A stretch of DNA of 64,000 nt from IMG/VR virus record IMGVR_UViG_3300005461_000009. One strand, 5' to 3'. The stretch comes from an uncultured virus (IMG/VR IMGVR_UViG_3300005461_000009) (Duplodnaviria; Heunggongvirae; Uroviricota; Caudoviricetes). Position numbers and translations under genes: made by a program. Below, in pieces: positions 20,392 to 38,122 of this stretch (position 1 is the stretch's first letter; each line of letters starts with the position of its first letter). The notes beneath the pieces were generated by a model, which was not told the origin of the DNA, searched no databases, and worked only from the letters and a program-made list of their open reading frames with translations.

Positions 20392-20446
20392 TATTATTTA
20401 GGAGTAAAGCGCACTTTTCTGTCATGACAAACCTCTTTGCCTCCCA
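20392..20446 (-). promoter_or_regulatory. Palindrome-bearing leader element (type A)
   Basis: GGAGG..GAGGTT-TGTCATGACA-..AAAGTGCGCTTT-ACTCCTAAATAA; shares blocks with 24504-24557. Confidence 0.6.
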
Positions 20447-20467
20447 TGTTTTTTTATTCTTTGTTCT

Positions 20468-20827
20468 TTATTGATACTTCCCTTTTTTATTCAAAACTTC
20501 CTCAAGTCTTCTCATTTTAATATTCATTGCTTTATGTAAGTCGTCATTGTTGACACCACAAACTTCTTGAACATAATAAATACTAAGCTGCACATCAGCC
20601 AATTCTTCAAGAATATTATATTGATCGCCTTTCCCTCTAAGTTCTTTTGAAATTTCTTTACTTAACTCAGCGAGTTCTTCCATGACAATAATTAAGTTTC
20701 TATGCCCTCTTGGATTACCATCATGTAAATTGGAATCTACAGACTGTTTCATTACACTCATAATCCATTGCTTGTCTATATTTTTCTCAGTTATAGGTAG
20801 CTGAGAAATAAATTTTTCTCTATCCAA
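20468..20827 (-). CDS. MazG-like nucleotide pyrophosphohydrolase
   Basis: MEELAEL...EELADV acidic motifs; TTG start after GGAGG. Confidence 0.75.
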   Translation of the reverse strand: MDREKFISQLPITEKNIDKQWIMSVMKQSVDSNLHDGNPRGHRNLIIVMEELAELSKEISKELRGKGDQYNILEELADVQLSIYYVQEVCGVNNDDLHKAMNIKMRRLEEVLNKKGKYQ

Positions 20828-20868
20828 TATTTCCTCCTTCCTCATCCAATAAAAGCAAAATTTCAAGA

Positions 20869-21465
20869 CTATTTTTCATTTAACCACACTTTAAATTTCT
20901 CATAAGTACCAAATTTTTCTTTCCACCCTGCAACGATTTCTGTTGGATTCAAATTGAACTGCTTACAAACATGTGTAATATATTCATTTTCATATAATTT
21001 CTTTCTTCTTTTATTCAGTTTCTTAACCTCTGCAAATACATCCTCTCTGGGTACACCATATTGCTTTAATAAGTAAGCACTAAGATCATATTCTGAGTAT
21101 TCAATAAATTGGCAAATAGGGCATACACACTCAGGAACTTCATAGCATCCACTATCTTCACAGCAAAATCCCCATAACTCATCTTCTTCCATTACAAGTA
21201 ATTCATCTTCCGAATAATCTTTGTAGTCTTTTAAATCAGAACTCCAAGCGTCTTTGTTCCACTCGTTCTCTATAATCATTTTAACCATTTCTTCTTTTGT
21301 AGGTTTTGGAAGAGATTCATCACAACAAAATGTATGACCATTAACACATTCCATCATTTCTGTATCTGACAAACACATATCCCACCCACTTTCAGTACGA
21401 CCACATATTTCGCAAACGAAACTAGAACTACTGCTATTTGTAACAAAATCAGTTCTTATCTTCAT
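20869..21465 (-). CDS. TNSSS-motif protein, Cys-rich
   Basis: Starts MKIRTDFVTNSSSSSF; CxxC pairs. Confidence 0.8.
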   Translation of the reverse strand: MKIRTDFVTNSSSSSFVCEICGRTESGWDMCLSDTEMMECVNGHTFCCDESLPKPTKEEMVKMIIENEWNKDAWSSDLKDYKDYSEDELLVMEEDELWGFCCEDSGCYEVPECVCPICQFIEYSEYDLSAYLLKQYGVPREDVFAEVKKLNKRRKKLYENEYITHVCKQFNLNPTEIVAGWKEKFGTYEKFKVWLNEK

Positions 21466-21470
21466 ATTTT

Positions 21471-21809
21471 TTATCCCACCTTAAAGTTTTCTGTGCCAAG
21501 TTTATATCCATAATCATACATAAACGCTCCAAACTCATCATCTTCATTGCAATATTCAACTGCTGATGCAATCCAATCTCCAAGATGCAAGTCTGATGGT
21601 TCTCTAAATAACTGATTGGATAAATCATTTATGAATTTTTCAACTGATTTACCATCAGTATCCATATCAAACATTTCCAATATGTATTTAATATTTTCTT
21701 TATTCTCATTTAAATTATTTCTTATTTCATCAATAGTGCAATTTTCTCTTTTTGCAATTATAAAACTGCTACTTGATGAATTAGTCACAAAATCGCTGCG
21801 TACTTTCAT
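21471..21809 (-). CDS. TNSSS-motif protein
   Basis: Starts MKVRSDFVTNSSSSSF. Confidence 0.8.
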   Translation of the reverse strand: MKVRSDFVTNSSSSSFIIAKRENCTIDEIRNNLNENKENIKYILEMFDMDTDGKSVEKFINDLSNQLFREPSDLHLGDWIASAVEYCNEDDEFGAFMYDYGYKLGTENFKVG

Positions 21810-22881
21810 ATAAATCTTTCTCCTTCCTGTCACATAAAACTATCTGTCTTCTAATAGGACAACCTCCCCTACATTCACACTGCCTACTACAACCACTACA
21901 TGAATTTCTAAAATGATCTCTAAAATCCTCAAACTGTTTACTGTTCCAGGCGTTCTGTACTGTATCATTTGAAATATCATATGCCCATCTCATATCTTGA
22001 TTATCAAAGCTACAAGGTAGCATTTTCATATCTGATGTAATATAAGCAGACCATCTACCACCTTCACAAGTATCAAAACTATCCTCATTTATATTTGAAG
22101 TCATATTGATAAGTGCTGGAACTGTACAAGAGTCAAAACCAATTTTGAAATCGAACTGCTGAGTATCAATAATATGAAAGAATTCTCTTACTCTTTTATC
22201 TTCTATATCTAACACATTATTTTCCTGCCCTAATCCTACCGGCTTATGCAACAAAAAAATTATCGCATTGATGCCTTTAGGGAAATCATTGCTTTTTAAT
22301 CTCTTAATTGCTTCATCAATAGAATTATTACCTAACACATAATGAATATTAGTTTTAATTCCTGCGTCTAACAACATCTGAATTGCTTTATATGTATGTT
22401 CCTGACGATACCAACTGATTGCAACAGCTCCACAAAGCTCTTTACAAAGTGAAACAATCTCTACAGTAAATCCAAGACCAGATGATGTAAAGTTTGGCAC
22501 GATACCATTTTCTCTACTATATCTTAGAATCTTTTCAAAATCTTCATGCTGATCCACATCACCTCTACCACCTAAAGCAAACTGAAAAGTTTTACCCTTA
22601 CACTCGTCCACAATTCTCTTGAAATTTTCAAAAGACATATTTGGATATTTTGTCTTTAAACCATTCTGATAACACTGAACGCCAGATTTAATACATAGAC
22701 CACTGTCTCCATGAACACAATGTCCCATTACTCCTATGTCTAATAATTCTGGAAATGAAGTCATAAAAGGATCTTTGCTTGTGTCTTTGCCATCTTCAAT
22801 AACTCCACTTCTCATGTAAAATCCTGTATTGGGATTAAACATAGATATAAATTTGTTCTTCTTATCAATTTTCTTAATCAT
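21781..22881 (-). CDS. Radical SAM/SPASM protein with an expanded cysteine motif
   Basis: C-x7-C-x6-C (CVHGDSGLCIKSGVQC), ALGGRGD, C-terminal CEGG..PCSF..CSGC..C.CRGGCP SPASM pattern. Confidence 0.82.
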   Translation of the reverse strand: MIKKIDKKNKFISMFNPNTGFYMRSGVIEDGKDTSKDPFMTSFPELLDIGVMGHCVHGDSGLCIKSGVQCYQNGLKTKYPNMSFENFKRIVDECKGKTFQFALGGRGDVDQHEDFEKILRYSRENGIVPNFTSSGLGFTVEIVSLCKELCGAVAISWYRQEHTYKAIQMLLDAGIKTNIHYVLGNNSIDEAIKRLKSNDFPKGINAIIFLLHKPVGLGQENNVLDIEDKRVREFFHIIDTQQFDFKIGFDSCTVPALINMTSNINEDSFDTCEGGRWSAYITSDMKMLPCSFDNQDMRWAYDISNDTVQNAWNSKQFEDFRDHFRNSCSGCSRQCECRGGCPIRRQIVLCDRKEKDLYESTQRFCD

Positions 22882-22926
22882 TTTATGACCTCATTTCTTT
22901 AAATTTTTCCCAATGAAAGAGTTGTT

Positions 22927-23169
22927 TTAACCGTTTGAGTTTTTACCATACAAACCAATAGCCTGTTCGTATGAAATACCATTATCCAATAAATAATGAT
23001 AACAATCTACACAAAAATCTAATTCTGATTCATCTCCAGGAAACGAGTGTAATATATCTTCGTCTGAAACTGTTTTTCCACATTTATCACATATCTCTTT
23101 CCATACCCACCAATTTCCATTACTATTCTCTGAACCATCATAATTAACTCTGTGTAGATTAACCTTCAT
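22927..23169 (-). CDS. Hypothetical Zn-finger protein
   Basis: CDKCG...FCVDC; ATG after AAGGAG. Confidence 0.6.
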   Translation of the reverse strand: MKVNLHRVNYDGSENSNGNWWVWKEICDKCGKTVSDEDILHSFPGDESELDFCVDCYHYLLDNGISYEQAIGLYGKNSNG

Positions 23170-23201
23170 TACTTGTTTCTCCTTCCTTTGAAATGAAAAA
23201 T

Positions 23202-23420
23202 TTATCCTAATGCTTGAAACTTTGTATATTCTAAAATCTTCCAATTATCAGGTGTCATATTTTCGATTCCACAGCAATCACTTTGGTCTACAAAAAATGG
23301 ACAATTACCACAATTTCCTTTCTCATTAAGGTTGTCCTTGCAAACCTGCTTAATAATTTTTAATGAAGTAATAATACTTTTACCATTAATTTCTACACCA
23401 TCTATTTCCCTCTTATCCAT
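23202..23420 (-). CDS. Hypothetical Cys-rich protein
   Basis: GGAGGT SD; C..CPF motif. Confidence 0.65.
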   Translation of the reverse strand: MDKREIDGVEINGKSIITSLKIIKQVCKDNLNEKGNCGNCPFFVDQSDCCGIENMTPDNWKILEYTKFQALG

Positions 23421-23444
23421 TTTATACCTCCAAATATTCTTTAA

Positions 23445-23592
23445 TGTAGTTTGCCCTTGTTCTCGTACAAGGAAGGAGCTACACTACCGCCTGTCGTAAA
23501 CGCCATTCCTACCGTTTGTTGGGAGTCGTTAGAATTGGTAAGGCAACTATCTCCCGAATGAGAACTACCAGTTATGAACTGATAACTCCCAA
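23445..23592. ncRNA. Candidate structured RNA (two large stem-loops)
   Basis: CCTTGT-tctcgt-ACAAGG inside TGTAGT/GCTACA; GGGAGT..GTTAG-AATTGGTA...TACCAGTT..CTGATAACTCCC; GC-rich non-coding island. Confidence 0.5.
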
Positions 23593-23621
23593 TGAAACCG
23601 ATGTTTTAAGTCTATATGTAT

Positions 23622-24503
23622 CTACTCTTCTTTTGCAAAATTCAACATTTCATCTTTTGCTCTCTGGTAGAAATTACGGTCAATTTCAAAACCGAAAGCA
23701 CTTCTGCCAAGTTCATAAGCTGCTCTTAGTGTTGTACCAGAACCTGCACATGGATCAATAACCACATCACCAGGATCAGTAAATATCTCAATCAAACGTT
23801 TCAGAACTGCTACTGGCTTCTGAGCCGGATGGATTTTGGGAACTTCCTTAGACTTATCTTTTTCCCACATCATATATGTACTGTTGCTATGATAAGTTCT
23901 TCCCCACTCATCCTCATCTCCACCATCAAACCAGTTAAAGATCATATGTCCTGTTCCTGGAATGTTCTTACCATTTTCATCAACTTGAAGACCATTTCTG
24001 AATTTTGGCAATTTATCTCTATATAATAGGAGTGCGTATTCAGCAGCTCCCACAACCCTCATGTTAGCTTTGAGTACCTGTGGACTATAATTCTTGCAAA
24101 AGATTAGTGGTATGTAATGAATGAACCCATGCCTTTCTGCCGCCTTAATAAGTGTCTGAATCTGTTCAAAAGAACAGAATACAATCATACAAGGTGAGTC
24201 ACTACTGCGTCCTCTCGGAACAGGTCTAGTATCATCTTTTTTAAGCATCTTGGAACAAAAATGAAAATATTCATATAGATTAAAATTAAAATCAGAATTG
24301 AAAGCTGCTTTACCAGCTAATTTACTTTCACCTTTTTTGTTGTCTCCTCCGTTGTACCACATCGGATTTGAACCGTAAAAATTATTTCCTACATTATATG
24401 GAACATCTGCAATAATTAACTGAGCAGGTGGAATTGCATACTTCTTATAATTCTGCATAGAGTCCCTATATAATTCACATTTGATTTTCTTTTGATATTC
24501 CAT
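23622..24503 (-). CDS. N6-adenine/N4-cytosine DNA methyltransferase (beta class)
   Basis: IADVPY (DPPY variant), HPAQKP, VIDPCAGSGTT, GFEID. Confidence 0.88.
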   Translation of the reverse strand: MEYQKKIKCELYRDSMQNYKKYAIPPAQLIIADVPYNVGNNFYGSNPMWYNGGDNKKGESKLAGKAAFNSDFNFNLYEYFHFCSKMLKKDDTRPVPRGRSSDSPCMIVFCSFEQIQTLIKAAERHGFIHYIPLIFCKNYSPQVLKANMRVVGAAEYALLLYRDKLPKFRNGLQVDENGKNIPGTGHMIFNWFDGGDEDEWGRTYHSNSTYMMWEKDKSKEVPKIHPAQKPVAVLKRLIEIFTDPGDVVIDPCAGSGTTLRAAYELGRSAFGFEIDRNFYQRAKDEMLNFAKEE

Positions 24504-24557
24504 TCTTATTTAGGAGTAAATCATGATTTATTCTGCGCAGAAACCTCATTTCCTCCT
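24504..24557 (-). promoter_or_regulatory. Palindrome-bearing leader element (type A)
   Basis: GGAGG..GAGGT-TTCTGCGCAGAA-TAAATCATGATTTA-CTCCTAAATAA then ATG. Confidence 0.6.
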
Positions 24558-24651
24558 GGTTTTATTATTCTAATTTTTGCATATGCTTATTTTGCTTCTA
24601 CTTTTTGACATACAATGAATCGAAATTTTCATTGCCACTTACCTTACTTAT

Positions 24652-25695
24652 TTATTTTTTCTTCTCGTCCATCTCCTTACAGAATTCTCTATACTTTCTT
24701 GTGTACTCATAACTGTCACCAAAAATATTATTCACAGCAACAAATAGCTTTGGTTCATACTTCTCTATAACTTCCAACTCCTGCTCAAAATCTCTTCCAA
24801 ATGGGCAACCAGCACAACCCGTTCTCTCTAACCCATATTCCGTATAACACTTACTATGTACAATTCCATAATGGTTTTCATAATCTTCTTTGTCTGAATT
24901 TGTGTACCAAAACAAAGGTCTGTAATTATCATAGCCTTCTCCATTTTCATCAAAACAGGATTTATATGCTGTTTGCCTAATACCTCCTTCAGCCCTTCTA
25001 ACCCCAAATACATTTAAATCATATCCTTCATTTGCAACAAGCTTATGTAATACATCTTTCTTTGCATATTTACAACACTTTGAAGAAATTTTGAACTTTG
25101 GAGGATTTTGAATCATGAACTCCTTTAGATATTTGTTATATGCAATATTAAATTGGACTGATTCATTTGCATTACACCACCACATTAACGCACCTTTACA
25201 TCCAACCCAATCTTGTTTCTTTGTATTCCATTCACAATATCTTTGCAATAATATGTCTAATGGTTCATCTTCCCATTGGAATCCATGACATTGTAATCTA
25301 TCAATCATTTCAGAAGCATTTTTTGAAACAAATGGTTGTCCATATTTTTTACAACTTGTAGGGATAGGAACGATTGCTTTATATGGTTTAATTTCTATAT
25401 TATACTTCTCTCTTAACAAGTTCAGATGGTTTTTTGTAGCCTGATATTCTAAACCAGTATCAAACCAAACATATTCTACCTTACCATCTTTATCACATTG
25501 CCAAATAATATCTGCCATTACATCACTGTCTGATCCGCCAGATAAAGCACATACAATTTTCTTGTATTTATCGTTGTTTATCTTTGACCACGCTCTTACT
25601 AAATTATCTCCTATTGTTTGATTTTGTGGAGCATTACTGATTAACTCCATCAGATCAGCAGATTTTGAATTTATATTTTTATCTTTTCCTTGCAA
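24652..25695 (-). CDS. PAPS-reductase-family (PP-loop) protein, phage type
   Basis: LSGGSDS, FDTGLE, KCC, GVRRAEG, RTGCAGCPFG. Confidence 0.85.
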   Translation of the reverse strand: MQGKDKNINSKSADLMELISNAPQNQTIGDNLVRAWSKINNDKYKKIVCALSGGSDSDVMADIIWQCDKDGKVEYVWFDTGLEYQATKNHLNLLREKYNIEIKPYKAIVPIPTSCKKYGQPFVSKNASEMIDRLQCHGFQWEDEPLDILLQRYCEWNTKKQDWVGCKGALMWWCNANESVQFNIAYNKYLKEFMIQNPPKFKISSKCCKYAKKDVLHKLVANEGYDLNVFGVRRAEGGIRQTAYKSCFDENGEGYDNYRPLFWYTNSDKEDYENHYGIVHSKCYTEYGLERTGCAGCPFGRDFEQELEVIEKYEPKLFVAVNNIFGDSYEYTRKYREFCKEMDEKKK

Positions 25696-25756
25696 TTATT
25701 GTACTTACAAGGTATGCGCATACATTTTACCTAGAATTACTTGTATAACTCCTTTC
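25696..25756 (-). promoter_or_regulatory. Palindrome-bearing leader element (type B)
   Basis: GAAAGGA..ACAAGTAATTC..TAAA..GTATGCGCATAC-CTTGTA; parallels 36295-36356. Confidence 0.6.
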
Positions 25757-25890
25757 ATAGTTTGCTGAATTGCTGATTTTTATTAACATTTGCAACTGCC
25801 AATAAAAATATAATTTCTTTTGGTTACTATCTTTTACATTCTATACAGATGATAATTTTACCGATGAAATTGGCTTTTCAAGGAATATTT

Positions 25891-26636
25891 CTATTTCTTA
25901 TATGTGAATAATTTCTCTACTCTGCTTTCATGTTCATGAACTTTTAAACTTGTGGTAACATTTTTGCACCAAATACATTCAAAATCCGAAGGAGCATTAT
26001 ATTCACTAACAAAAGCCAATTTTCTTTACTCATTTTTCTACACCAATCCCAAAACATATCATAATCAAATGAATCTGTAGCATATTTAGTTGTACCTTGA
26101 TACGGAGGATCACAATAAATAACTGCATCCCGTAAATTAGCATACTCATTGTTTCTATAATCGCTACATAAAAATTTAATATTTTGTATATTGGGAATTT
26201 GTTCTGATAAGTTTCTTAATGCTTCATTTGGGATGTCTCTTGGTGTAACTTTGTCTGCTTTAAATCCTCTTGCATACCCACCAAAATATTTAGACCCAAA
26301 AGTTGCATTAAACCCTATAAGACCTACATAATAATCTGGATAATCTTTTTTACTATTTCTAACTTTATTATATTCTTCTTCTGAAATATGCAATGGTATT
26401 TCCCAACCATTCTGAATTTCATTCCACATTGCAATCAATTCTTTATGTATATCATTACCAATACGATTTTCACATTTAATCTTGTCAATCATATTGGCCC
26501 CACCAACAAACGGCTCATAATATATTTTTATATTATTTTCGTCAATACACTTTTGAATAATAGGTACAATATACTTGCTTATTCTGTTTTTACTTCCAAC
26601 GTATTTTATTTTCTTCACCCAGAAAGGTATGATCAT
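25891..26636 (-). pseudogene. Dam-like (D12 class) adenine methyltransferase with a frameshift near the 3' end
   Basis: KYVGSK, YEPFVGG, YCDPPY; the family-like tail VSEYNAPSDFECIW...VEKLF continues in the -1 frame from about 26010 to TAG at 25891. Confidence 0.7.
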
Positions 26637-26669
26637 CTCACGGCAGCAGCACCTTTATTCCTTTCCGTG

Positions 26670-26888
26670 TTATTTAGATTTTCTATTTCCTTCTTTTACT
26701 CGTTCAGCCAACATACTGATTAGTCTTGCTCCATATGGATACAATGAAGGCTCAAATGATATGTAATCTAATTGCATTACACCTCTACCTTGATTTTCTT
26801 CAATAATATTTGCTAATTCATTAAAAAACTTCGCTTGCTGTTCTGAGTCCATGTTCCAAAATTCTTCAACTAATTCTCGTGGATTCAT
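26670..26888 (-). CDS. Hypothetical protein
   Basis: ORF; frame extends to an ATT after GGAGGTG. Confidence 0.6.
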   Translation of the reverse strand: MNPRELVEEFWNMDSEQQAKFFNELANIIEENQGRGVMQLDYISFEPSLYPYGARLISMLAERVKEGNRKSK

Positions 26889-26965
26889 TTCAATATCTAC
26901 TTCTCTTGTAATTATTTATATCACCTCCAAACTTGTGATAAAACAGATTTTTCCTTGGGTTATGC

Positions 26966-27877
26966 TCATGCTATCTTGCAGTAATTCTTATCATTTTCAA
27001 TATTGAATTCATACTGAATAAGTGCTTCATAAACATAATCAGGAATAATATTTTTGTACTCGTTGGCAATTTTAATAATATCTTCTTTCTTCTTTTTAAC
27101 ATAAACAGAATATGCTTCTTCAAGTGTCAAATAACTACCAAGTTCTTCATGATTATATTTTGCAGAGTATCCTCTGACACACTTTTTAATGCCATTAGGA
27201 AGACCACGGTTATTTGGTTTATTTACAAATAGCATATTAATTCTTTGAGGAACTAAAATGCAGTTATCTGGAGAATATACCTTATTCCCTGGATGTAAAA
27301 TATCTTTATCCAAATGTAATCTGCCATCGCATTTATATTCTCTTTCTTCATACCAGTCAGCAAATGTTTGGAAATTGAGCCATTCATTACAAACAGTAGA
27401 TATATCGAAATATGCTGGATGTAAATCTCTATTTTGTTTTCCATAACATCTATCAAGCATATTCTTCCAAGACATATATGTTTTAGTATTTGTCTTTGTA
27501 TCTAGATATTGCATTTTGTGTTTTCCTGCACCTAAATAACCAATGCCAAATACTGTTTTATCATATGGATTTTTGATTTGTCCTCTTCGAAAATTTACAT
27601 ATGTTTGATGTTTCTTTATATGATGGAAATCATCTATAAACTCAACATCAAGATCCTCGCTACTTCTATAAGAAACTATTTTCATTAAAGTACCTTTATT
27701 ATTACTTTTTGTTTCGCCTAATCTGTCCGTTATACCACCTCCATATATTCCTTTCCACACTTGACTACCTATCAGAATGCTCAAGCCACAAACTTGAACA
27801 TTCCAAAAAAAAGAGGTTAAAATGAAAACAACAAAATTTATCTGATTGAGTGATTGAACACTCTGGTAGATAGCCAA
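26966..27877 (-). CDS. HNH-type free-standing homing endonuclease-like protein
   Basis: Y.SW.NML.RC, VC.EW.NFQ.F..W, LDKDIL..GNKVYSP.NC..VP..IN; true start probably near 27733 after GGAGGTG. Confidence 0.7.
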   Translation of the reverse strand: MAIYQSVQSLNQINFVVFILTSFFWNVQVCGLSILIGSQVWKGIYGGGITDRLGETKSNNKGTLMKIVSYRSSEDLDVEFIDDFHHIKKHQTYVNFRRGQIKNPYDKTVFGIGYLGAGKHKMQYLDTKTNTKTYMSWKNMLDRCYGKQNRDLHPAYFDISTVCNEWLNFQTFADWYEEREYKCDGRLHLDKDILHPGNKVYSPDNCILVPQRINMLFVNKPNNRGLPNGIKKCVRGYSAKYNHEELGSYLTLEEAYSVYVKKKKEDIIKIANEYKNIIPDYVYEALIQYEFNIENDKNYCKIA

Positions 27878-27958
27878 GTGTATATTATATTTCTTATCTA
27901 TAATTGTTTTTATCCTTTTTTATCACATAATTTGTCACCTCTTTATAAAAATTTTGTA

Positions 27959-28008
27959 GAACTTATGTTTGTTTTTTCATTGACATTTGGTACAAATTGG
28001 TATATAGT
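27959..28008 (+). promoter_or_regulatory. SigA promoter of the retron locus with an upstream LexA-like box
   Basis: TTGACA(27980)-17 nt-TATAGT(28003); GAAC-TTAT-GTTT at 27959. Confidence 0.7.
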
Positions 28009-28014
28009 TATAGG

Positions 28015-28325
28015 TATCAGTGTTATATAGCAGATTTACTCCCGTTTGGTTCGTTATTTTATATAACGAATGGATGCTCAATGATTTATGAGCATTTTTT
28101 AGGATGGACAGGCTCTGTACCACCGGTATCATCCTGTGCCATCCTCCCCGACAGCACAGGTCATCACATGCTCTTTACATACTTCTTTCAAGAGAAGTAT
28201 AATAAAGTGCTTTTACGGGGAGAAGAATTTTGCTGGTGTAAGGTAGATATACGCTATAATCATATCTCTTTGTTATTTGAGGACTGGGGAGACTCCATTA
28301 TGGAGCCAATATAATAACAAGGAGG
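28015..28325 (+). ncRNA. Putative retron msr-msd ncRNA
   Basis: Series of hairpins: TTCGTTAT/ATAACGAA, ATGCTCA/TGAGCAT, AGGATGG-ACAGG/CCTGT-CCATCCT, and a long CTCCCCG..AGCAC..ATACTTCT/AGAAGTAT..GTGCT..CGGGGAG stem, between the promoter and the RT. Confidence 0.7.
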
Positions 28326-28333
28326 TGAAGCCA

Positions 28334-28513
28334 ATGAAAAAGGCGGATAAATTTGAAATCACTATTGACATCCACAAAAAGGTTCGTATTACTAAAAAAA
28401 TGGTGATTATTTCTGTATCATTAATTGTTCTACTTGCACTGATTATGTCTAACTGTAGTTCTGAAACATTAGCTGATATTATTCGCTCGTTAATCAGCAT
28501 TGTTTCTAACTAA
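28334..28513 (+). CDS. Small (59 aa) transmembrane protein, candidate retron effector
   Basis: AAGGAGGTG SD; hydrophobic MVIISVSLIVLLALIM. Confidence 0.7.
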   Translation: MKKADKFEITIDIHKKVRITKKMVIISVSLIVLLALIMSNCSSETLADIIRSLISIVSN

Positions 28514-28545
28514 CACCAGCATTTATTTGAATATTGAGGTTATTT

Positions 28546-29517: not shown

Positions 29518-29941
29518 TTTTTAATCCACTAAAATCTGAATCCTTGAAAGTTTTATTCTTAAACTGCACCAAACATAACCTATTTTTATACATTCCAAGA
29601 ATTGACTGTGTAATACCATTTCTCTTTTCCAGTACATTTAAATATAGCTTTAGATAAAATGGTTTATCATTCTCTTTACACCACTCAATTAAGTCATACA
29701 CTTCTTTATTTTCTGCCATAGAATCAGCATCTTCATCACTTTCTTCTTCTGATACTTCCTTCTCTACTAATTCAAAATACTTTTCAAATTCGTTATAAGA
29801 CATACACCCAAGATGACAGCCACCAAATTTAAAACTGATAACGCCATCTTCTGATACATCTGTCACTTCGCAAACTTCTCCGATATTATCAAATACTCCC
29901 ATCGGCTTAATCAGCCTAATCTCATTTCCTTTTGTAATCAT
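29507..29941 (-). CDS. Hypothetical protein
   Basis: ORF coupled to the PcfJ-like gene. Confidence 0.6.
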   Translation of the reverse strand: MITKGNEIRLIKPMGVFDNIGEVCEVTDVSEDGVISFKFGGCHLGCMSYNEFEKYFELVEKEVSEEESDEDADSMAENKEVYDLIEWCKENDKPFYLKLYLNVLEKRNGITQSILGMYKNRLCLVQFKNKTFKDSDFSGLKIML

Positions 29942-31056
29942 GCTGTTTTCCTTTCTTTATCTGCAAATTTTTTATTCCATTTATCAATTGCTTCTTGGTC
30001 TTCTGATGTTACAGGATCGTTAAATCTTCTTCTGGCTTGTACAATATGATTGTTTCGTATCTCAATAGTGACAAGACTCTCTTTAGGATTAGATTTCTTA
30101 CGCAAGAACATAATATGACATTCTCCATCAATAACTTTATCTATGTAAGAAGCCACACAGTTATTTTGTGCTACTGCCTCATCTTTAATTTCTTGTGTGC
30201 TATCAGGATAAATAAACTGATAATCCCCAAATATACATTCCAAATTCTTATTTATTCTTGTCTTAAATATCTCCTCAGAAAATTCTTTCTTTAATCTATT
30301 ATAATTTCTACATGCAATCTTATGTGTAGTAAGAAAATTCCGTGGATATTTATCAAATTTTGGACTGATCGTATTCATCATTCTTGCATAATCTACCAAT
30401 TCACCAAGTAAATGACGCATATCTTCTATTGCTTCAAAAGTTTTTAGAGTGTCAAGATACAGCAACAATGCTTTCGGATTATATCCATATTCTTCAATCA
30501 ACTTATTAAAATAGGAAAAGTAATTACTAATCCCATCAACATAATCATAACTTTCTCTCATTAAAATTTTATTGATGTCTTCATCTGTTAAAGATATATA
30601 ATCAAGCTGATACGCCAGAAAATGAGCATCAGGATTTCTTTTCCAATAATCACAAAATCTATCTGATATTTTTATTTGTCTATCTCTCGCTATTTTGATT
30701 AAAGATTTTGGAATATCATTGATTGTTTTTGTAAAATTTCTATCTACAATACTATCGAATCCTGCTGAAAATATCTGTTCAAATTTTGAATACTGTGGAA
30801 CTTTTGAAAGAATTGTACCTATATTTGATATGTAATTTGGGTATCTATTCTGTACAAATTTGAGAAATTTAGCATATTTTTCATCAGCACAATACTCAAT
30901 TATCTGATTCATTGTTATGCCTGATAATTGGCTCTGCAATCCTTTTACTGGTTTACCTTTGATCCCTATACAAGTTTTTGTGGCAAAATCATATTTGACA
31001 GTCCTTCCATCTTCAAAATCAAATATTAAGAACTGTTTCTCTTTGTAAACTCTCGT
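29938..31056 (-). CDS. PcfJ-like domain protein; probable ACG/ATA start
   Basis: E...QNNCVASY...I.FLR...SLVTIEI...I.QA motif; frame open to ATA-ACG after GAGGTG. Confidence 0.72.
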   Translation of the reverse strand, partial: TRVYKEKQFLIFDFEDGRTVKYDFATKTCIGIKGKPVKGLQSQLSGITMNQIIEYCADEKYAKFLKFVQNRYPNYISNIGTILSKVPQYSKFEQIFSAGFDSIVDRNFTKTINDIPKSLIKIARDRQIKISDRFCDYWKRNPDAHFLAYQLDYISLTDEDINKILMRESYDYVDGISNYFSYFNKLIEEYGYNPKALLLYLDTLKTFEAIEDMRHLLGELVDYARMMNTISPKFDKYPRNFLTTHKIACRNYNRLKKEFSEEIFKTRINKNLECIFGDYQFIYPDSTQEIKDEAVAQNNCVASYIDKVIDGECHIMFLRKKSNPKESLVTIEIRNNHIVQARRRFNDPVTSEDQEAIDKWNKKFADKERKTA

Positions 31057-31101
31057 TATCTATCACCTCTTTTTCTGCCTTAAAATCTCGATTTCATTTC
31101 T

Positions 31102-31149
31102 ATACCATATATAGCAACCATTCATCCAACCGAACACTATATATGGTAT
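31102..31149. promoter_or_regulatory. Tandem NrdR-box-like pair
   Basis: CCATATATAG (31105) and ACACTATATATGGT (core 31137); cores 32 bp apart. Confidence 0.55.
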
Positions 31150-31153
31150 ATTT

Positions 31154-32056
31154 TTATTGTTCAGATACTATCTTTTTGAACATTTCATCTACAGAGTCCA
31201 ATAAATCATATCTCTTATCAAAATCGGCAGTAGAACTTCTTGCAAATTTCTGTTCAACCATATCAATATAATATGTCATGCTGCCATCATCCCCCATGTA
31301 AAACTCATCCCCCTCTTCCTGGCTCATTAATCTCTTAACTTCAAGCTGATCAATAGCCAGATTATCGAAACTCACTACTTTGAAACGCTCAATGATTCCA
31401 CCAAGATTTTCTTTCAGCCACATTTGCTTAATAATGATATTTTCGTGATCCTCACTATACCATTCACCACCACGCCTTAACTGCTTATATCCAAGGATAA
31501 GCATCTTCAAATTCTTATCAAATAACATTTCTACGTCTGAAGGCTTGAGAATACCGTTAATCACATGTATAACTGCATTTGGATATTGCTGAATTAGTGA
31601 TATAAATTCATCTGTTGGATTTACAAGAGATACACCAAGACCATATATTAGTTTTTCATCAACCAACTTCTTAATCAATTCCTGTTTCTGTTCAAAGTGT
31701 CGCTGGTTTACGGTCATATTTACAACGGCTTTCCTATCCTTCAGCTTATGTAAAAATGGAATCAGATCTGGATGGCTCGTTGCATCACCACCACCAAGCG
31801 CAACCTCCTGATACGGATGTAAAGTTTCAATAAACTTCTGGTTCAGAATATCTCCATGTTTACCATTCTTTGTGCTACCCTCATGACAGAAATTACATCC
31901 CATATCACAATAATTACTTATCTTGATATCCATATTCTCTGCAAAATCAGGGATAAACTCATCATCTTCTGTTTCTCTAATCTTGGTTCCATCTGAGAAT
32001 AACTTAGTGGTAAAATTCCCATTCTTATAAATTCCCAACAGATTCATTTCTACCAT
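31154..32056 (-). CDS. Radical SAM protein
   Basis: CDMGCNFCH (CxxxCxxC), EVALGGGD, TVN. Confidence 0.85.
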   Translation of the reverse strand: MVEMNLLGIYKNGNFTTKLFSDGTKIRETEDDEFIPDFAENMDIKISNYCDMGCNFCHEGSTKNGKHGDILNQKFIETLHPYQEVALGGGDATSHPDLIPFLHKLKDRKAVVNMTVNQRHFEQKQELIKKLVDEKLIYGLGVSLVNPTDEFISLIQQYPNAVIHVINGILKPSDVEMLFDKNLKMLILGYKQLRRGGEWYSEDHENIIIKQMWLKENLGGIIERFKVVSFDNLAIDQLEVKRLMSQEEGDEFYMGDDGSMTYYIDMVEQKFARSSTADFDKRYDLLDSVDEMFKKIVSEQ

Positions 32057-32062
32057 CCTTTC

Positions 32063-32434
32063 TTAATCGTGACCGTAATATCCAAATGCTACAACTTCTT
32101 CACCGTTTTGAGTGGTATACTTTTTCTCATATGTCTCATACCAATCATTTTCAAAATATTTTTCACAAGTTTTGATTCCTTCATCTGAAAAAATATCATC
32201 TACTGTATCCTCATTTTCCCAATTAACCTTTTCATATCGTGGTGTTCCATCATGCCACTTCATTTTTTTCATTTCTTCAATGATTTCTTCTTTGGTTCCA
32301 AATTTATTTTCCTCTTCCCAATATAATACTTCGCCGTTCTCCCACTTTTTGTACTCTTCTCCAGAACACATTGTTAAACTATGTACTGAACTACTATTTG
32401 TCTCGAATACTCCACGTCTTACTTCCCTCTTCAT
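32063..32434 (-). CDS. TNSSS-motif protein
   Basis: Starts MKREVRRGVFETNSSSVHSL. Confidence 0.8.
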   Translation of the reverse strand: MKREVRRGVFETNSSSVHSLTMCSGEEYKKWENGEVLYWEEENKFGTKEEIIEEMKKMKWHDGTPRYEKVNWENEDTVDDIFSDEGIKTCEKYFENDWYETYEKKYTTQNGEEVVAFGYYGHD

Positions 32435-32450
32435 AAAATAAACTTCCTCC

Positions 32451-32897
32451 TTAATCACAATCTGTTTTTAATGACACATACTTATTGAATACAAAATTGA
32501 TAACCGCATCCTCATCATAAACATTGACAATTTCAATATTGCCATAGGGCTGCGACTGATGATCAATCTCTGGTTCCTGTTCTCCTAAAATCTTAATTCC
32601 TGTCGCACCTGTATATTTACAAATAGCATCCTGAATTTCTCTAAATTCCCACTTGTCATAAATATCAGATATATCATATCCTGACAGATAATATAAACAA
32701 GTAATCAGATAGGAAAGTTTGTCATATTGTGATGTATAAATACGTTTGTCTTTTCCAAACTGTCCAAAATCAATTTCTATTTCTCCATCCTTATTCAGTT
32801 TGAATTCACTCGGTTCCCTGCCCTCATTAGAAATAACCAAACTGTGAACCGAAGACGAATTTGTTTCAAATACACCTTTTCTAATCTTCCTTTTCAT
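32451..32897 (-). CDS. TNSSS-motif protein
   Basis: Starts MKRKIRKGVFETNSSSVHSL. Confidence 0.8.
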   Translation of the reverse strand: MKRKIRKGVFETNSSSVHSLVISNEGREPSEFKLNKDGEIEIDFGQFGKDKRIYTSQYDKLSYLITCLYYLSGYDISDIYDKWEFREIQDAICKYTGATGIKILGEQEPEIDHQSQPYGNIEIVNVYDEDAVINFVFNKYVSLKTDCD

Positions 32898-32904
32898 TGA
32901 TCCC

Positions 32905-33618
32905 TTAATCCTCTCTTGGATATTCATGATCAATCATATCCATATTTACTAGCCCTGTTTGCTTCATATTGTCCCAATAGCAATATTCATCACCGTCTTG
33001 AATGACGACATATTTCTTATTTATAAGATATTCTTCAAGAGAAATACCTTCATGCTCTAAAAATCCACTTAGAATATCTTCATCAACATATCCTGTACAT
33101 GGTTTGTCATAATGCCACCAGCCATTTGAAGATTTCCAATACTCAAGTTCAAAACCCCAATCCTTTTCTTTCTGTGATAAATATTCTTTTAGTTCATCTT
33201 CTGTCTTACCATACTTCTGATAATAGTCATCGTTTTTATGTTCTTCATCATTTTTATCTGCAATACTATCACTGTCCATTGGCAGTTTGATCTTTTTAAG
33301 ACCTGGTATATATTTCAATGCAAGTGCAACGAGTTCTTTATAAACATCATCATTATAGTCATGAACCAACGAAGCACACGCATACAACCATTTATCTGTA
33401 AATGTTCCCAAAGCCCTAAATGGACTCCTACCAAATTCCAAATCGTGATCCCAAGGCTCCCAAACACAAGATTCCTCGCCTGTATCTTCGTCTTTACATA
33501 AATATATTCCGTCTAAAAATTCTTCTGGAGTATATTTATCATCTCTCTTCATAACTGTTAAACTATGCATAGAACTCGAATTTGTTTCAAAAACATTTCT
33601 TCTAATCTGTCTCTTCAT
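32905..33618 (-). CDS. TNSSS-motif protein
   Basis: Starts MKRQIRRNVFETNSSSMHSL. Confidence 0.8.
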   Translation of the reverse strand: MKRQIRRNVFETNSSSMHSLTVMKRDDKYTPEEFLDGIYLCKDEDTGEESCVWEPWDHDLEFGRSPFRALGTFTDKWLYACASLVHDYNDDVYKELVALALKYIPGLKKIKLPMDSDSIADKNDEEHKNDDYYQKYGKTEDELKEYLSQKEKDWGFELEYWKSSNGWWHYDKPCTGYVDEDILSGFLEHEGISLEEYLINKKYVVIQDGDEYCYWDNMKQTGLVNMDMIDHEYPRED

Positions 33619-34313
33619 ACTTCTCCTTTCACAACTCTCTCATTCACACTTGCTACAAATTCATTGATCCGCTTGTAGTCTGGATTATCTGGAAGATTTG
33701 TGTTATTCTTTGCATACTCTAACTTCTTCTCATAGACCTTCATACCACGTCTAATCGCATTATTATAAGCAGATGATCCACCCATAATCTTCTTGGAAAT
33801 ACAGATAGAAATTGCAGATTCCAAACTGAATGTATCAGGTTCTCTACATACAGATTTCTCTTTTGTTCCATCTGCAAATGTAACTTCTACAACCTTGTCT
33901 GGCACAATTAGATTTACATCTACAATTCTAATATCTTTCTCTCTACATGTTAAAATTTTTTCAATTGGTAACATTTCTGTATTAAATGCTCCGACATAAT
34001 GATCCATCATATTCTCTCCTCCATAACTTGAACATTTTTTATTTTCTAAATAGTTATAAATTATTTCTCTTAATGGTATTCCAGCTAATAATGCTTCATT
34101 TACTTTATCCAAACTTACAATAAAATCACCCCAACTCGAAGAACGTCTTTGTAAAGTCATGCAAAAATCATCCACAACGCTAGATTCTTCATTAGTAATT
34201 GTTTTCATGATTGTTTTTTGTTTATCAATTTTCCTTCTTATTTCTAATTCTTTTTTCTTACTTTCTGTTATAAATGTTTCTATCCAATTATGCTCAATAT
34301 TTATATTAATCAC
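33615..34313 (-). CDS. Hypothetical protein, possibly chimeric
   Basis: 232-aa ORF; AT-rich 5' half, more GC-rich 3' half. Confidence 0.55.
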   Translation of the reverse strand: MININIEHNWIETFITESKKKELEIRRKIDKQKTIMKTITNEESSVVDDFCMTLQRRSSSWGDFIVSLDKVNEALLAGIPLREIIYNYLENKKCSSYGGENMMDHYVGAFNTEMLPIEKILTCREKDIRIVDVNLIVPDKVVEVTFADGTKEKSVCREPDTFSLESAISICISKKIMGGSSAYNNAIRRGMKVYEKKLEYAKNNTNLPDNPDYKRINEFVASVNERVVKGEV

Positions 34314-34333
34314 CTTCCTTTGAAACGTGGGTT

Positions 34334-34927
34334 TTAAGACTTCTTTTCTTTGCCAATCTCCATAATTAAAATCGTCCCAGAATGTGTTGGACTTGTATTA
34401 GAATTTGCAGTTAAAGTCGATGCATAATCTTTACATTCAGTTCCGTTATATGGAACAAAATATTCTGGAATATAACCATATTTCTCATAAAACTCTGTAT
34501 ATTTCTTTTCGAACCAAGACTTATTTTCTACAATTAACGAGTCTTTCTGTACAGTTGTAATTGCATTAGACAACTCATCATCTCTTACTTCTATTTTCTG
34601 TTCTGTTTTTCCATCTGAATTGTACCTACCACGCATAGCGGCACCTCTTACCTCAACAACTTTTGGTAAATTCCCATGAAATTCAGAAATAAGTGTTGGC
34701 GAATGCCCATATGTTATCTGTGGTTTTTTATTTACCTTTCCTCTATCGTTGATACAAATATCTAAATATTCTTTATCTTTAATACAAGCAACTTTTAATC
34801 CGCTTCTTTGACTTCGCAATGTTGGAACATAATCTTTGTAAAATCTAGCACCATCAAAACCTTGTGTATCATCAATACATATTACTTCTTCGCCACAAGC
34901 AGAATTTACTCCGCTTGTGGTTTGGTA
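34334..34927 (-). CDS. Methyltransferase TRD-repeat module reached by a predicted -1 frameshift
   Basis: PTL/STL TRD-like repeats (VPTLRS, SPTLIS, ASTLTA); frame open up to the slippery site at 34927-34933; no SD of its own seen. Confidence 0.65.
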   Translation of the reverse strand, partial: YQTTSGVNSACGEEVICIDDTQGFDGARFYKDYVPTLRSQRSGLKVACIKDKEYLDICINDRGKVNKKPQITYGHSPTLISEFHGNLPKVVEVRGAAMRGRYNSDGKTEQKIEVRDDELSNAITTVQKDSLIVENKSWFEKKYTEFYEKYGYIPEYFVPYNGTECKDYASTLTANSNTSPTHSGTILIMEIGKEKKS

Positions 34928-34933
34928 AAATTT
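34893..34933 (-). promoter_or_regulatory. Programmed -1 ribosomal frameshift signal
   Basis: In-frame A_AAT_TTT heptamer, 6-nt spacer, 11-bp hairpin CCACAAGCGGA/TCTGCTTGTGG. Confidence 0.75.
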
Positions 34934-36294
34934 CCAGTATTAATGCTTTCATACAATCTGTCCAAACTAGCCTCAAATGCACCAATACCTGAGAAGAAAC
35001 TGCTCAGTTTTAAATCATCAAATAGGTACGGCATTGCCTTATATAACTCAACTAATATGTAATATAAAACATCTACTACTATTGAATTCCCTGATTGTTT
35101 ATAAAGCTGGCTGTTGCTAACAACTTTGCTTGCAGCGTCATATGCCGAATCAGAAAATCCCATAAGCCTGAAAGTTTCTTTTGGCGTTAGTTTGCGGATT
35201 CTAATACCTGTTAAAATTTTATTTCCTTCACCTTTATTTGTTGTTAAAGTTGGTGCTAGTCCATCTTCTGAAAATACATTACCATTCATACCTTTACCAG
35301 ATGGATTTACATTACCAACCTGAACAATCTTAGGTTCATGGCTACCTCCGCCACAAGTATTTAATGTCGGTGAACAACCATCGGGATCATAAATTCTCCC
35401 CACTTGTGGATTCTTCCAATTCCCATTGCAATCAGAAATATTTCCGACTTGTTTTACTACATTTTCATTTACCAATCTGGGATCTTTATAGTCTCTTGAA
35501 GTGAGAGTTGGACAGTAATCATTATATTCCCTTGATTTACCCTCTCTTTTTACCTGACACGGATCATATAGTAAAGAAGTATTAGTATTTAGATTTGTTA
35601 AAAATCTCTGCACTTTATCATCAAAAATATAATATTTTTCATCTACCTCATCTTCCAAAACATCTTTCAAACGAATTCCATTATCAAATTCTCTAGGGAA
35701 CACAAACTTACCGTTGTCTAAGTCTTTCTTGATAAAGATCAGATATACTCGCTCTCTGTTTTGAGGAATACCATAATCTTTTGCGTTCAGCACTTTCCAA
35801 TATGTATTGTAGCCATACTCATGTAACTCATCTTCAAATAATTTGAATGTAGTATCTCTGAATTGTTTACCCACAATATTTTTAACATTTTCATACATTC
35901 CAAAATTAGGTTTATTTCCTCGGATTACTCTCAAATACTCAACAAGAAGTGACGATCTTGTTTTTTCAATATTATTACTTCCACAATTAGGACATTTATC
36001 TCTCTGACTCCAATGTACCGTTAGAGGGTTATATTCATGTCCACAACCATTACAAGTCCACACAGAACCCTTTTGTTTACCAGCTACGCTGAAATCCTGA
36101 CAAGGACTCCCTCCACAAATCATATTAAAATCTTCTAATTTTGTTCCATCAACCTCAGTAATATCACCAAGGTTTAAATTCTCATCTACTCTGTGAATTG
36201 CACAATAGCTTTTAGTCGCATACTTATCAAACTCACAGAAATTTACCAGTTTCCAATTTTTTGATAAACTAAATCTTTTATTATTACTTTCCAA
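34906..36294 (-). CDS. Circularly permuted C5-cytosine DNA methyltransferase with multiple TRD repeats and a Zn-ribbon insert
   Basis: CEFD (II), GGSPCQDFS (IV), ENV (VI), QNRER (VIII), RKLTPKE (IX), YKQSGNS (X), then SFFSGIGAFE (motif I) at the C-terminus. Confidence 0.88.
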   Translation of the reverse strand: MESNNKRFSLSKNWKLVNFCEFDKYATKSYCAIHRVDENLNLGDITEVDGTKLEDFNMICGGSPCQDFSVAGKQKGSVWTCNGCGHEYNPLTVHWSQRDKCPNCGSNNIEKTRSSLLVEYLRVIRGNKPNFGMYENVKNIVGKQFRDTTFKLFEDELHEYGYNTYWKVLNAKDYGIPQNRERVYLIFIKKDLDNGKFVFPREFDNGIRLKDVLEDEVDEKYYIFDDKVQRFLTNLNTNTSLLYDPCQVKREGKSREYNDYCPTLTSRDYKDPRLVNENVVKQVGNISDCNGNWKNPQVGRIYDPDGCSPTLNTCGGGSHEPKIVQVGNVNPSGKGMNGNVFSEDGLAPTLTTNKGEGNKILTGIRIRKLTPKETFRLMGFSDSAYDAASKVVSNSQLYKQSGNSIVVDVLYYILVELYKAMPYLFDDLKLSSFFSGIGAFEASLDRLYESINTGNFTKPQAE

Positions 36295-36356
36295 ATGCCT
36301 TATCTACAAGGCGTTGCAACGCTAATTTATCCGGAATTACTTGTTATATCCTTTCT
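36295..36356 (-). promoter_or_regulatory. Palindrome-bearing leader element (type B)
   Basis: GAAAGGA..ACAAGTAATTC..TAAA..GCGTTGCAACGC-CTTGTA. Confidence 0.6.
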
Positions 36357-36408
36357 CTAATTTGTTATTTTGTGAATCTTTCATGGGTTCATGACTCCCG
36401 TTGAAATA

Positions 36409-37053
36409 TTACCTAATGTTTTTTTCACAAATATCAACAATATGCTCACATAATGCTGATGGAATTTTACTTCGTTCAATACTACCTTTAAGTCCCTGTG
36501 TTCCTGTTTTAGCTCCCCTTGGAGCAGATACATGACATGGATCGCCATTCTTACACATGGGTTTAAACTTAGGATTTGGATGATTAGTCCAGATATCAGT
36601 AGGTTTCATTCTTTCATCGCCATACTGACAATATGTAACCGTATATCGTGGTAAGTCTTGCATCCAAGACATCTTTCTCATGCCACCACGGGGATTTTCG
36701 ATGAAGTAGTATGTAGGATTTAATTCTTTGATAAGCGAAATAACATGTTGATCTACTTTATCACAGAACTTTGCATAATCACTGATAGGTTCAAGACTTC
36801 CTGTTTCTGGATTCTTTCTTCTGTGATGACTAATTGCCGCAATGCTGAAAGTCGTACAGTCAGGACTCGCCCAAATAACATCAGGTTTTCCAAACTTGTT
36901 TAAAATGTCTTGTGCTGTAACTTTACTAATATCTTCATATAGGTCGATGTTTTCAAAATCTTTATTCCATTCAACACTGAAAACTTTATGACCTCTTGCT
37001 TCAAATGCTTTACCAATACTTCTTGTACCTGCGAATAATTCTAATACCTTAAT
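36409..37053 (-). CDS. Short C5-methyltransferase-like protein; ATT start
   Basis: Read by hand: (I)KVLELFAGTRS, WASPDC, IENPRG, KPTDIW, RSKIP; an in-frame TGA lies three codons before the ATT. Confidence 0.8.
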   Translation of the reverse strand: MKVLELFAGTRSIGKAFEARGHKVFSVEWNKDFENIDLYEDISKVTAQDILNKFGKPDVIWASPDCTTFSIAAISHHRRKNPETGSLEPISDYAKFCDKVDQHVISLIKELNPTYYFIENPRGGMRKMSWMQDLPRYTVTYCQYGDERMKPTDIWTNHPNPKFKPMCKNGDPCHVSAPRGAKTGTQGLKGSIERSKIPSALCEHIVDICEKNIR

Positions 37054-37255
37054 TTTTGTTCACCATTACTTAGTAGCTGCGCAGCTTTCTTCACCAGTGA
37101 ACATTCGTATCCTTTCTGTATTTATATTTTTGCCATCTATGGCAATAAAAGATTTAATTCATCGGGTAAAATACCCATTTATGTATCAAAAAAATTCTGA
37201 TACAACGGCTGAGAACCACAACCACTATCCTATCGTTTTACTCTTTAGGAATACT

Positions 37256-37771: not shown

Positions 37772-38122
37772 ACCTATATTCTATTTTTTATTTGTGGAAT
37801 TACCGACTTGATTAAATCTAATAGAATTGATATACTAAGACTTATCAAAGCGGTTATCCGTTTTGTTGCTTATAGGCATCTTGCCCACTCGCCAAAGTAT
37901 CAGGATGCCTATTTTATTATTTCTCCATTATTAAACGCTTTAATTAGCATATGTGCTATTTCTGTTTCATAATTACCACACAAACAATTCATATCTGCTA
38001 TTACTCTTGAAAAGAAATCTTTGAATTTATCTGCTTTAAAATCAATTTCATATTCTTTTGGTATTTCTATAGCGATCTTCATACCAAATCATCACCTCCA
38101 GTTAAAATGTTTCTTCTATTGG

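Follow-up and report, generated by a model that had tools for sequence, protein, structure and literature searches.

In phage T4, genes 25 and 38 possess a split ribosome-binding site, in which the Shine-Dalgarno sequence (SD) lies far from the start codon across a gap of 22-27 nt holding one hairpin, and folding shortens the spacing to 5 nt in gene 38 and 11 nt in gene 25 (PMC3014915). In phage Mu, the DNA-modification gene mom is subject to a translation inhibition structure and to the zinc finger protein Com (PMC6483171). Palindromic kissing loops that form homodimers are known from the dimerisation initiation site (DIS) of human immunodeficiency virus (HIV) and from the umbravirus PEMV2, in which dimerisation activates a gene-expression step (PMC10484742, PMC9104694, PMC7357161), and concentration sensing by RNA dimerisation (“quorum sensing”) has been raised as a possibility (PMC9104694). 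The present study concerns six leaders that combine a displaced SD with palindromes, located in a 64,000-nt stretch of DNA (the window) from an uncultured Caudoviricetes virus (IMG/VR IMGVR_UViG_3300005461_000009).

On comparative sequence grounds, these leaders are a real, widespread RNA family of Bacillota temperate phages, for which no description was found and for which we infer the mechanism of a two-state ribosome-site switch. An earlier note on this DNA had placed the six leaders, all on the minus strand, and had proposed an element that controls translation through a displaced SD; this is supported, since homologous leaders show the covariation that the note had suggested looking for and the other genes of the provirus containing the window (G000) lack such leaders. 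The displacement, put at about 50-60 nt, was measured as 40-56 nt, and every palindrome and closing stem that had been named was found again; a second palindrome in five of the six leaders (broken in that of the Dam-like gene) and an anti-SD in three are additional, as are the occurrence of leaders before non-SAM genes, the inversions described below and the pairing between two RNA copies to which the palindromes point. The shared anatomy comprises the SD, two unlike palindromes (A and B, with centres mostly 13-16 nt apart), a 3′ arm and the start codon. Type I, represented in the window by the leaders of the radical S-adenosylmethionine (SAM), N6/N4 methyltransferase (MTase) and Dam-like genes, begins with the SD and an SD-mimic, continues with A and B, separated by a short A-rich linker, and closes with the anti-SD, a further 10 nt or so and the start, with 42-52 nt from SD to start in subtype Ib (115 leaders). 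Type II, found before the short C5 MTase and also before RNA ligase and Pnkp genes, opens with the SD and a stem that uses the first half of A as its 5′ arm, followed by B, a small hairpin, the 3′ arm and the start, and type III, before the 3′-phosphoadenosine 5′-phosphosulfate (PAPS) reductase-like and permuted C5 genes, is made up of SD, closing stem, 6-nt A, 12-nt B, a competing hairpin and start.

By analogy, the leader may work like a T4 split site crossed with a mom-type occluded site, with palindromes that resemble viral kissing-loop dimers. As in T4 genes 25 and 38, intervening structure would shorten a long SD-start distance, and both the extended distance and a covarying closing helix are present; however, as far as the T4 sites are described, the leaders differ in their distance of 40-56 nt, two palindromes, anti-SD and alternative helix. 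As in mom, mRNA structure is predicted to hold off translation (opening the start signals would cost 5.6-6.7 kcal/mol), and Mom-like genes also stand behind leaders, but mom needs a sequence-specific zinc finger whereas the leader sequences vary freely, with no shared factor found. As in kissing-loop homodimers, a self-complementary segment would pair two copies, and in the leaders self-complementarity through the centre is kept while the sequence changes, with dimer energies that are predictions; the viral examples, as described, come from eukaryotic RNA viruses and serve packaging or transcription, whereas here a bacterial 5′ leader carries two palindromes tied to an SD.

Strong support for self-pairing of transcripts, and for a two-state switch of the ribosome site, comes from sequence comparison. 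A type Ib pattern scan of viral and genome collections, which fixed the SD, mimic, U/A tracts and anti-SD and required no palindrome, gave 168 unique matches (this and the other family-wide tallies from these scans, including those of downstream proteins and host genomes, hold among the matches listed), with both palindromes in 58/60 viral and 71/108 genomic ones. Among the genomic matches, B was palindromic in 71 of the 79 with A and in 1 of the 29 without, and a scan for a second subtype gave 34/39 against 3/51. In a protein-anchored test, the best stem had a Watson-Crick palindromic 4-nt centre in 80/133 distal-SD leaders, compared to 10/99 canonical-SD homologues and 89/1343 shuffled stems. 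Moreover, adjacent central pairs covary (alignment A2, columns 26/27 and 44/45, both-side changes in 11/27 each, with a score reached by 0/500 shuffles); adjacent bases cannot pair within a hairpin, and therefore a second RNA copy is needed. The hexamer of B, in 126 leaders chosen on A alone, holds 356 Watson-Crick, 21 G-U and one C-A pairs (9 G-U vs 1 C-A in unique hexamers), an excess of G-U that is the signature of sense-strand RNA. The centre of A differs from that of B in 129/129 leaders, so that the two cannot kiss within one molecule. Median hairpin energies are -0.4 (A) and +1.1 kcal/mol (B), and median self-duplex energies -19.3 and -12.4 kcal/mol (115 leaders), and among the leaders of one phage self-pairing outscores cross-pairing for the strong palindromes. 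All this is kept amid high diversity, with 134 leaders showing 66 different sequences of A and 63 of B, and just 2-3 invariant columns in alignments A1, A3 and A4, in which both stems vary freely.

The leader looks like a two-state switch because covariation links its 3′ arm to either of two partners. In type I the partners are the SD and the mimic just behind it, which are mutually exclusive; in type II the arm pairs with the first half of palindrome A or with nothing, and the closing stem and A exclude each other. Both-side changes occur in 5/5 pairs of the mimic helix, whose end is G.A or A.G (94/26 vs 9), a swap that holds within each SD-flank class, and the SD helix shows U-A 61, C-G 17, U-G 10 and C-A 3. 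In type II, 5′ arms pair more stably with the 3′ arm of the same leader than with those of others (-6.75 vs -2.25 kcal/mol, 10 leaders). The earlier view had folding bring the SD to the start; because the 3′ arm can bind the SD as well, a two-state switch fits better than a plain loop-out. Type I monomers are predicted to have a buried SD (median unpaired probability 0.08). When A and B are fixed as helices, exposing SD plus start is predicted to become cheaper, going from 6.7 to 5.6 kcal/mol in type I (lower in 61/84), from 6.2 to 2.2 in type II (21/27) and from 5.6 to 2.9 in type III (10/13), and predicted folded spacing in type II is about 6-10 nt.

We propose a cis-acting translational switch gated by mRNA homodimerisation. 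Gating by the dimer, whatever its sign, appears fairly probable from the sequences; the specific form in which the dimer is ON is in our view evenly balanced, its sign probably correct, if uncertain. A lone leader would fold with the SD or start region buried (OFF). Once transcripts are abundant, two copies would pair A with A and B with B, as two short side-by-side duplexes, which would free the SD and let the mimic helix close, so that the palindromes bulge out and the SD approaches the start (ON). Such a switch would set a cooperative threshold, keeping DNA-modifying enzymes silent under leaky prophage transcription and allowing their synthesis on induction, a link to induction that we infer by analogy with Mu mom (PMC6483171). 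In type III leaders, an invertible cassette would form a separate layer, removing SD and start altogether (phase variation).

Several results weigh against this proposal. The fall in opening cost is partly built in, because any constraint removes competing pairs, and it comes with no matched control. In RNAcofold dimers, SD access is unchanged (0.08 vs 0.06 across 87 leaders and 0.91 vs 0.92 across 49), although the program cannot model two duplexes at once, and RNAalifold returned no consensus structure for alignment A2. By the loop-out measure, pairing A in trans cuts the type II ON fraction from 0.23 to 0.05, and that of the window's short C5 leader from 0.89 to 0.02, which points to the opposite sign (dimer = OFF). 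Rows were removed by eye before these energy counts, namely 6 GC-rich false positives ahead of the RNAcofold comparison, 2 others ahead of the loop-out measure and 5 ahead of the opening-cost calculation. The predicted folded (ON) spacing of type Ib is mostly 12-16 nt plus a helix, above the 5 and 11 nt of T4. An earlier and cruder protein-anchored test found no G-U bias (10 G-U vs 8 C-A). Family-wide counts are of sequences rather than independent events, uncorrected for relatedness, and the sequencing runs matching the window are contigs alone, informing on neither expression nor inversion frequency.

With the same homodimer, the monomer might instead translate by loop-out, and the dimer shut it off or serve as an RNase III substrate, capping the enzyme as phage copy number rises. 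The covarying, mutually exclusive stem and palindrome A of type II, together with the drop in the looped-out fraction when A is removed, speak for such a sign, and the weak starts fit low expression; we consider it rather unlikely, given that in type I the SD is predicted to be buried even in the monomer, that the mimic helix of type Ib ends beside B, itself unstable as a hairpin, and that several type II leaders have the stem directly against the start codon. A protein that binds hairpins or duplexes and flips the switch, whether a zinc finger of the Com kind or a duplex-binding factor from host or phage, has a precedent in mom (PMC6483171), and zinc-ribbon repeat proteins (23/186) and two Mom-like proteins are themselves downstream of leaders. 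It is nevertheless unlikely in the face of the 66 A and 63 B sequences, and a hairpin binder would not need self-complementary loops; moreover, loci L009 and L010, whose MTases are the same sequence over the part compared, carry CGCG and GCGC centres. The zinc-ribbon protein has no match in the 92% complete G000 (the profile model was contaminated with D12 proteins; tblastn was likewise empty). A universal Com-like factor was not found in G000, and the Atlas yielded zinc-ribbon clusters only; Com itself and its motif were not searched for. Those zinc-ribbon repeat proteins, of about 200 residues, stand behind type Ib leaders (L538:1355-2020, L412, L526 and relatives).

The downstream genes bear on the two regulators suggested by the earlier note, a SAM-responsive riboswitch and an operator bound by the enzymes themselves. 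The 186 unique downstream proteins form 52 clusters and comprise 89 MTases, 47 PAPS-reductase-like, 23 zinc-ribbon repeat, 9 SNF2-like (helicases), 2 radical SAM, 2 Mom-like, 2 sigma, 2 Myb/D5-like and 1 excisionase-domain proteins and 9 unassigned, as tallied by hand from one representative per cluster, a few from visible sequence likeness. Both regulators are disfavoured because these genes are mixed and identical MTases carry different palindromes; the operator is further weakened by an identical leader sequence before unrelated enzymes. The common theme behind the leaders is DNA modification and DNA binding, not SAM. A switch responding to SAM, S-adenosylhomocysteine (SAH) or another small ligand could draw on the roughly 91/186 SAM-using proteins, an SD/anti-SD platform, and the U3/A3/U3 tracts and G.A pair of type Ib, which could form triples, yet these tracts were part of the search pattern and are absent from other subtypes, at least 83/186 proteins are PAPS-reductase-like, zinc-ribbon, SNF2, Mom-like, sigma or similar, RNA ligases occur too, and neither an Rfam match nor more than the few invariant columns was found; we regard it as quite improbable. 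Leaders before non-SAM genes had been foreseen as evidence against the idea, and they are lacking before other G000 genes, while family-wide about half the downstream proteins are of this kind. No SAM synthesis or transport gene was present among 51 downstream proteins scanned, nor among the 15 of a further scan. Riboswitches of the SAM-III and SAM-VI types share a possible three-way junction and an SD within the fold, but they have conserved ligand-contacting junction bases and precede SAM metabolism genes (PMC6914780), both lacking here; a likeness to the SAM-III box rested on two window leaders only and is not kept in alignment A4. The guanidine-II riboswitch also has two small stem-loops with a palindromic kissing contact (PMC7357161), but its loops, as described, are alike, conserved and kiss within one RNA, whereas A and B differ in all 129 leaders compared.

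It may also be asked if the palindromes act in DNA, as methylation or restriction targets or recombination enhancers, apart from the RNA helices. Most are perfect Watson-Crick palindromes with common MTase target tetramers, type III leaders lie on invertible DNA, and the cruder G-U test was neutral; on the other hand, the sense-strand ratio of G-U to C-A is 21 to 1, the centres use most 4-nt palindromes whatever the enzyme, palindrome A of type II covaries with the RNA 3′ arm, and no leader is inverted among 159 N6/N4, 91 short-C5 and 76 radical SAM loci, which together make this highly improbable. That a palindrome is its enzyme's own target was rejected, as identical MTases carry different centres. 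Closing stems exist and covary and split sites are known (PMC3014915), so the leader might be a static split site in T4 style, its symmetry a by-product of template-switch repair, but a static site would leave unexplained the covarying anti-SD helix, the two fixed-spacing palindromes across unrelated genes, and their retention in a palindrome-avoiding genome, and we see only the slightest chance of it. That genome, G000, has 189 perfect palindromes of at least 10 nt against 252-283 in five Markov sets, and GGCC and CGCG stand at 0.17 and 0.24 of expectation. An upstream open reading frame (ORF), frameshift or ribosome hop was rejected: the gene frame relative to the TTG that follows the SD in many type Ib leaders is spread 31/44/28, an ORF from it stops before the gene in 56/103, and ATG occurs at that position in 1/129.

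The leaders extend well beyond the window. Flanks of homologues gave 280 unique upstream regions, 136 with a distal SD, 114 with a canonical SD and 30 with neither. Genome records with both palindromes come mainly from Lachnospiraceae and other Clostridia and some from Enterococcus, and cultured carriers include Ruminococcus phage phiRM10 and Enterococcus phages phiFL1A and phiEf11. In phiRM10 (L646:2499-2537) and phiEf11 (L790:955-991), the MTase has been annotated as starting about 36-39 nt downstream of the post-leader ATG, and starts of leader-bearing genes are easily misannotated. As for novelty, Rfam 15 matched a tRNA alone in the window (a single gene at 46104-46177, minus strand) and nothing in 10 related loci, and at E values up to 10 there were five sub-threshold matches in 20000-38000, none on a leader; the D12-methyl motif likewise gave no Rfam match, and the match to a described family that, by the earlier note, would have removed the novelty was thus not seen. 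A description of the motif was not found in the literature searched, to which most subscription papers, the supplement of Weinberg 2017 and the alignments of Fremin 2023 did not belong, nor in the accessible text of Weinberg 2010 and 2017, though the 2017 supplement may hold related motifs. Fremin et al. (2023) list candidates DNAVirus_3104 and DNAVirus_3131 (before D12/Dam) and DNAVirus_4173 (before Dcm) from gut Ruminococcaceae phages, which in the accessible text are catalogue entries without a stated mechanism (PMC10690425); by description rather than alignment, these may be subfamilies of the leader motif. A search for promoters or terminators of the leaders' own gave 81 promoter-like sites against 105.5 expected, with none of the 60 shown tied to a leader.

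All six window leaders and their genes lie on the minus strand, and the gene labels given earlier were upheld by Pfam and PHROG, except that “B12-like” is unconfirmed for the radical SAM protein (19216-20391, TTG start, same first residue in homologues), which matches PHROG 9298 (E 1e-48) as radical SAM only and has no Pfam or NCBIfam match. Its type Ib leader (20392-20445; SD 20440-20445, mimic 20432-20435, A 20418-20431, B 20406-20417 with one U-G, anti-SD 20401-20405) scores 65.5 bits with covariance model R1, whose alignment includes it. Upstream of the N6/N4 DNA MTase (23622-24503, ATG; PF01555, E 5e-28) is another type Ib leader (24504-24557; SD 24552-24557, mimic 24544-24547, A 24531-24542, B 24517-24530, anti-SD 24512-24516). 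The PAPS-reductase-like gene (24652-25695, TTG; PF01507, E 4e-11, PHROG 424) has a type III leader (25696-25756; SD 25749-25756, closing stem 25740-25745 with 25706-25711, A 25730-25735, B 25712-25723), as has the circularly permuted C5 cytosine MTase (34906-36294, TTG; PF00145, E 4e-59, in two stretches), whose leader spans 36295-36355 (SD 36349-36355, closing stem 36340-36344 with 36306-36310, A 36330-36335, B 36311-36322). The short C5 MTase (36409-37053; PF00145, PHROG 757) starts with ATT, and its homologues keep the start position as ATG, GTG, ATT or ATA; its type II leader (37054-37116; SD 37110-37116, closing stem 37097-37103 with 37057-37063, A 37090-37101 overlapping the stem, B 37075-37086) ends at 37116 and not, as first given, at 37106. 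SD-to-start distances are 48 nt (radical SAM and N6/N4), 53 (PAPS-like), 54 (permuted C5) and 56 (short C5). For the D12 (Dam-like) MTase (25944-26618; PF02086), which starts at GTG 26618 or ATA 26609, the distance is 40 or 49 nt, and its type I leader (26619-26666) contains SD 26659-26666, mimic 26651-26656, a broken A 26643-26650, B 26629-26636 and anti-SD 26621-26628. Palindrome A is intact in relatives and the frame departs from homologues near the 3′ end (a split tblastn match); the gene is probably decaying, and because of the frame change and the broken palindrome, gene and leader (25944-26666) may be decaying together.

As a control, 6 of 166 ORFs of at least 100 residues in G000 reach -20 kcal/mol or better for an SD plus two palindromes: four window leader genes, one false match inside an upstream coding sequence, and a seventh leader of type Ib outside the window, before a D12-like MTase (leader G000:144115-144178; locus G000:C1:144115-145038, L324). 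The short-C5 leader was skipped by the control's start rule and recovered separately, and the Dam-like leader is weak (-11 kcal/mol). The type Ib-built model has three matches in G000, all from its own training set.

DNA inversion is present, on sequence comparison, in one leader subtype, type III, which in relatives often lies reversed along with its SD, start and first codons. A putative invertible segment (25667-25817) carries the PAPS-like leader and first codons between a 16-nt inverted pair with one mismatch (25802-25817 and 25667-25682) and is reversed in relative L240; matched inverted sites also occur in relatives. The segment with the permuted-C5 leader and first codons (36264-36410), inverted in relatives, gives a 147-nt inverted match of 95% with L275; its right site (36265-36280) is intact and its left one degenerate, and no matched inverted pair was found for it within the window. 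In RNA run X17, one contig has an opposite-strand joint of 36275 with 36406 at 90% likeness, possibly from a relative. Automatic orientation counts, near-duplicate loci included, are 65 forward, 8 reversed and 14 neither for permuted C5 and 7, 2 and 6 for PAPS-like loci; among the N6/N4, short-C5 and radical SAM loci counted above none was reversed, and a single reversed D12 call proved false on inspection. Pairwise BLAST reveals inverted blocks of 147-173 nt inside colinear flanks (L260 and L255, 96% colinear, share a 173-nt inverted match, and L315 is likewise inverted against L310), 4/21 pattern matches point away from their gene, and one module fronts at least four different MTase bodies. 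Tyrosine-recombinase invertons have short inverted sites, carry a segment found in both orientations and affect methyltransferases, and type III segments are alike in these respects; invertons are known to switch an hsdS domain or a promoter, whereas the type III segment flips a phage MTase's start codon together with its leader and SD, and its sites resemble those at many gene ends of the source phage. The two integrase-family genes of G000 (PF00589) are adjacent to neither segment.

The type III segments carry, at their 5′ end, a third palindrome, which is imperfect (about 25785-25800 and 36385-36400 in the window; also L246, L309 and L318). Another site, 16 nt long with an arm-6N-arm layout and a variable core, was counted 39 times on the coding strand against 4-16 expected (for example, on the minus strand, at 20865, 22929, 23608, 34336, 38482, 38807, 39283, 42894, 47926, 55842, 59389 and 61001), and 20/39 fall between -6 and +45 nt relative to a stop codon, a zone that makes up 6.6% of the genome; judged by sequence, this resembles an array of gene cassettes built on sites of the kind seen at the leader inversions.

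The window corresponds to G000:C1:75376-139375 (minus) inside this 159-kb provirus. Its DNA is present in mouse gut sequencing runs, its N6/N4 MTase is 95-97% identical to genes of Lachnospiraceae genomes, and six loci (L001, L081, L161, L166, L239, L297) are one contig identical to it and hence non-independent. On the strand opposite to the leaders, 28028-29517 (plus) encodes a retron-like reverse transcriptase (best NCBIfam match retron St85, below cut-off), and a non-coding stretch related to its upstream region forms a contig of depth 119 in run X17. A second, group II intron-like reverse transcriptase (39511-40554, minus; NCBIfam, below cut-off) could be a candidate diversity-generating element. 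An NB-ARC/NACHT protein, a Fic-domain protein and three GmrSD-domain genes (10732-12639, 48223-48978, 48989-49522, 56520-57563, 59590-60663) are likely prophage-borne defence genes.

To our knowledge, regulatory RNA homodimers are rare and come mostly from eukaryotic viruses. The family described here has an even chance of being a protein- and ligand-free, self-sensing riboregulator that reads its own mRNA concentration through two palindromic duplexes with second-order cooperativity, in which different palindrome pairs would provide largely separate channels for each gene and inversion would add an ON/OFF layer. Should dimerisation not be the trigger, the family would reduce to a variety of structured translational leader. 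If it is, a bacterial leader of about 50 nt would represent a new class of gene control, directly testable in vitro, that would offer programmable, cooperative parts for synthetic biology and would explain how methyltransferases and other DNA modifiers remain quiet in the lysogen while the phage progeny are yet shielded from restriction.

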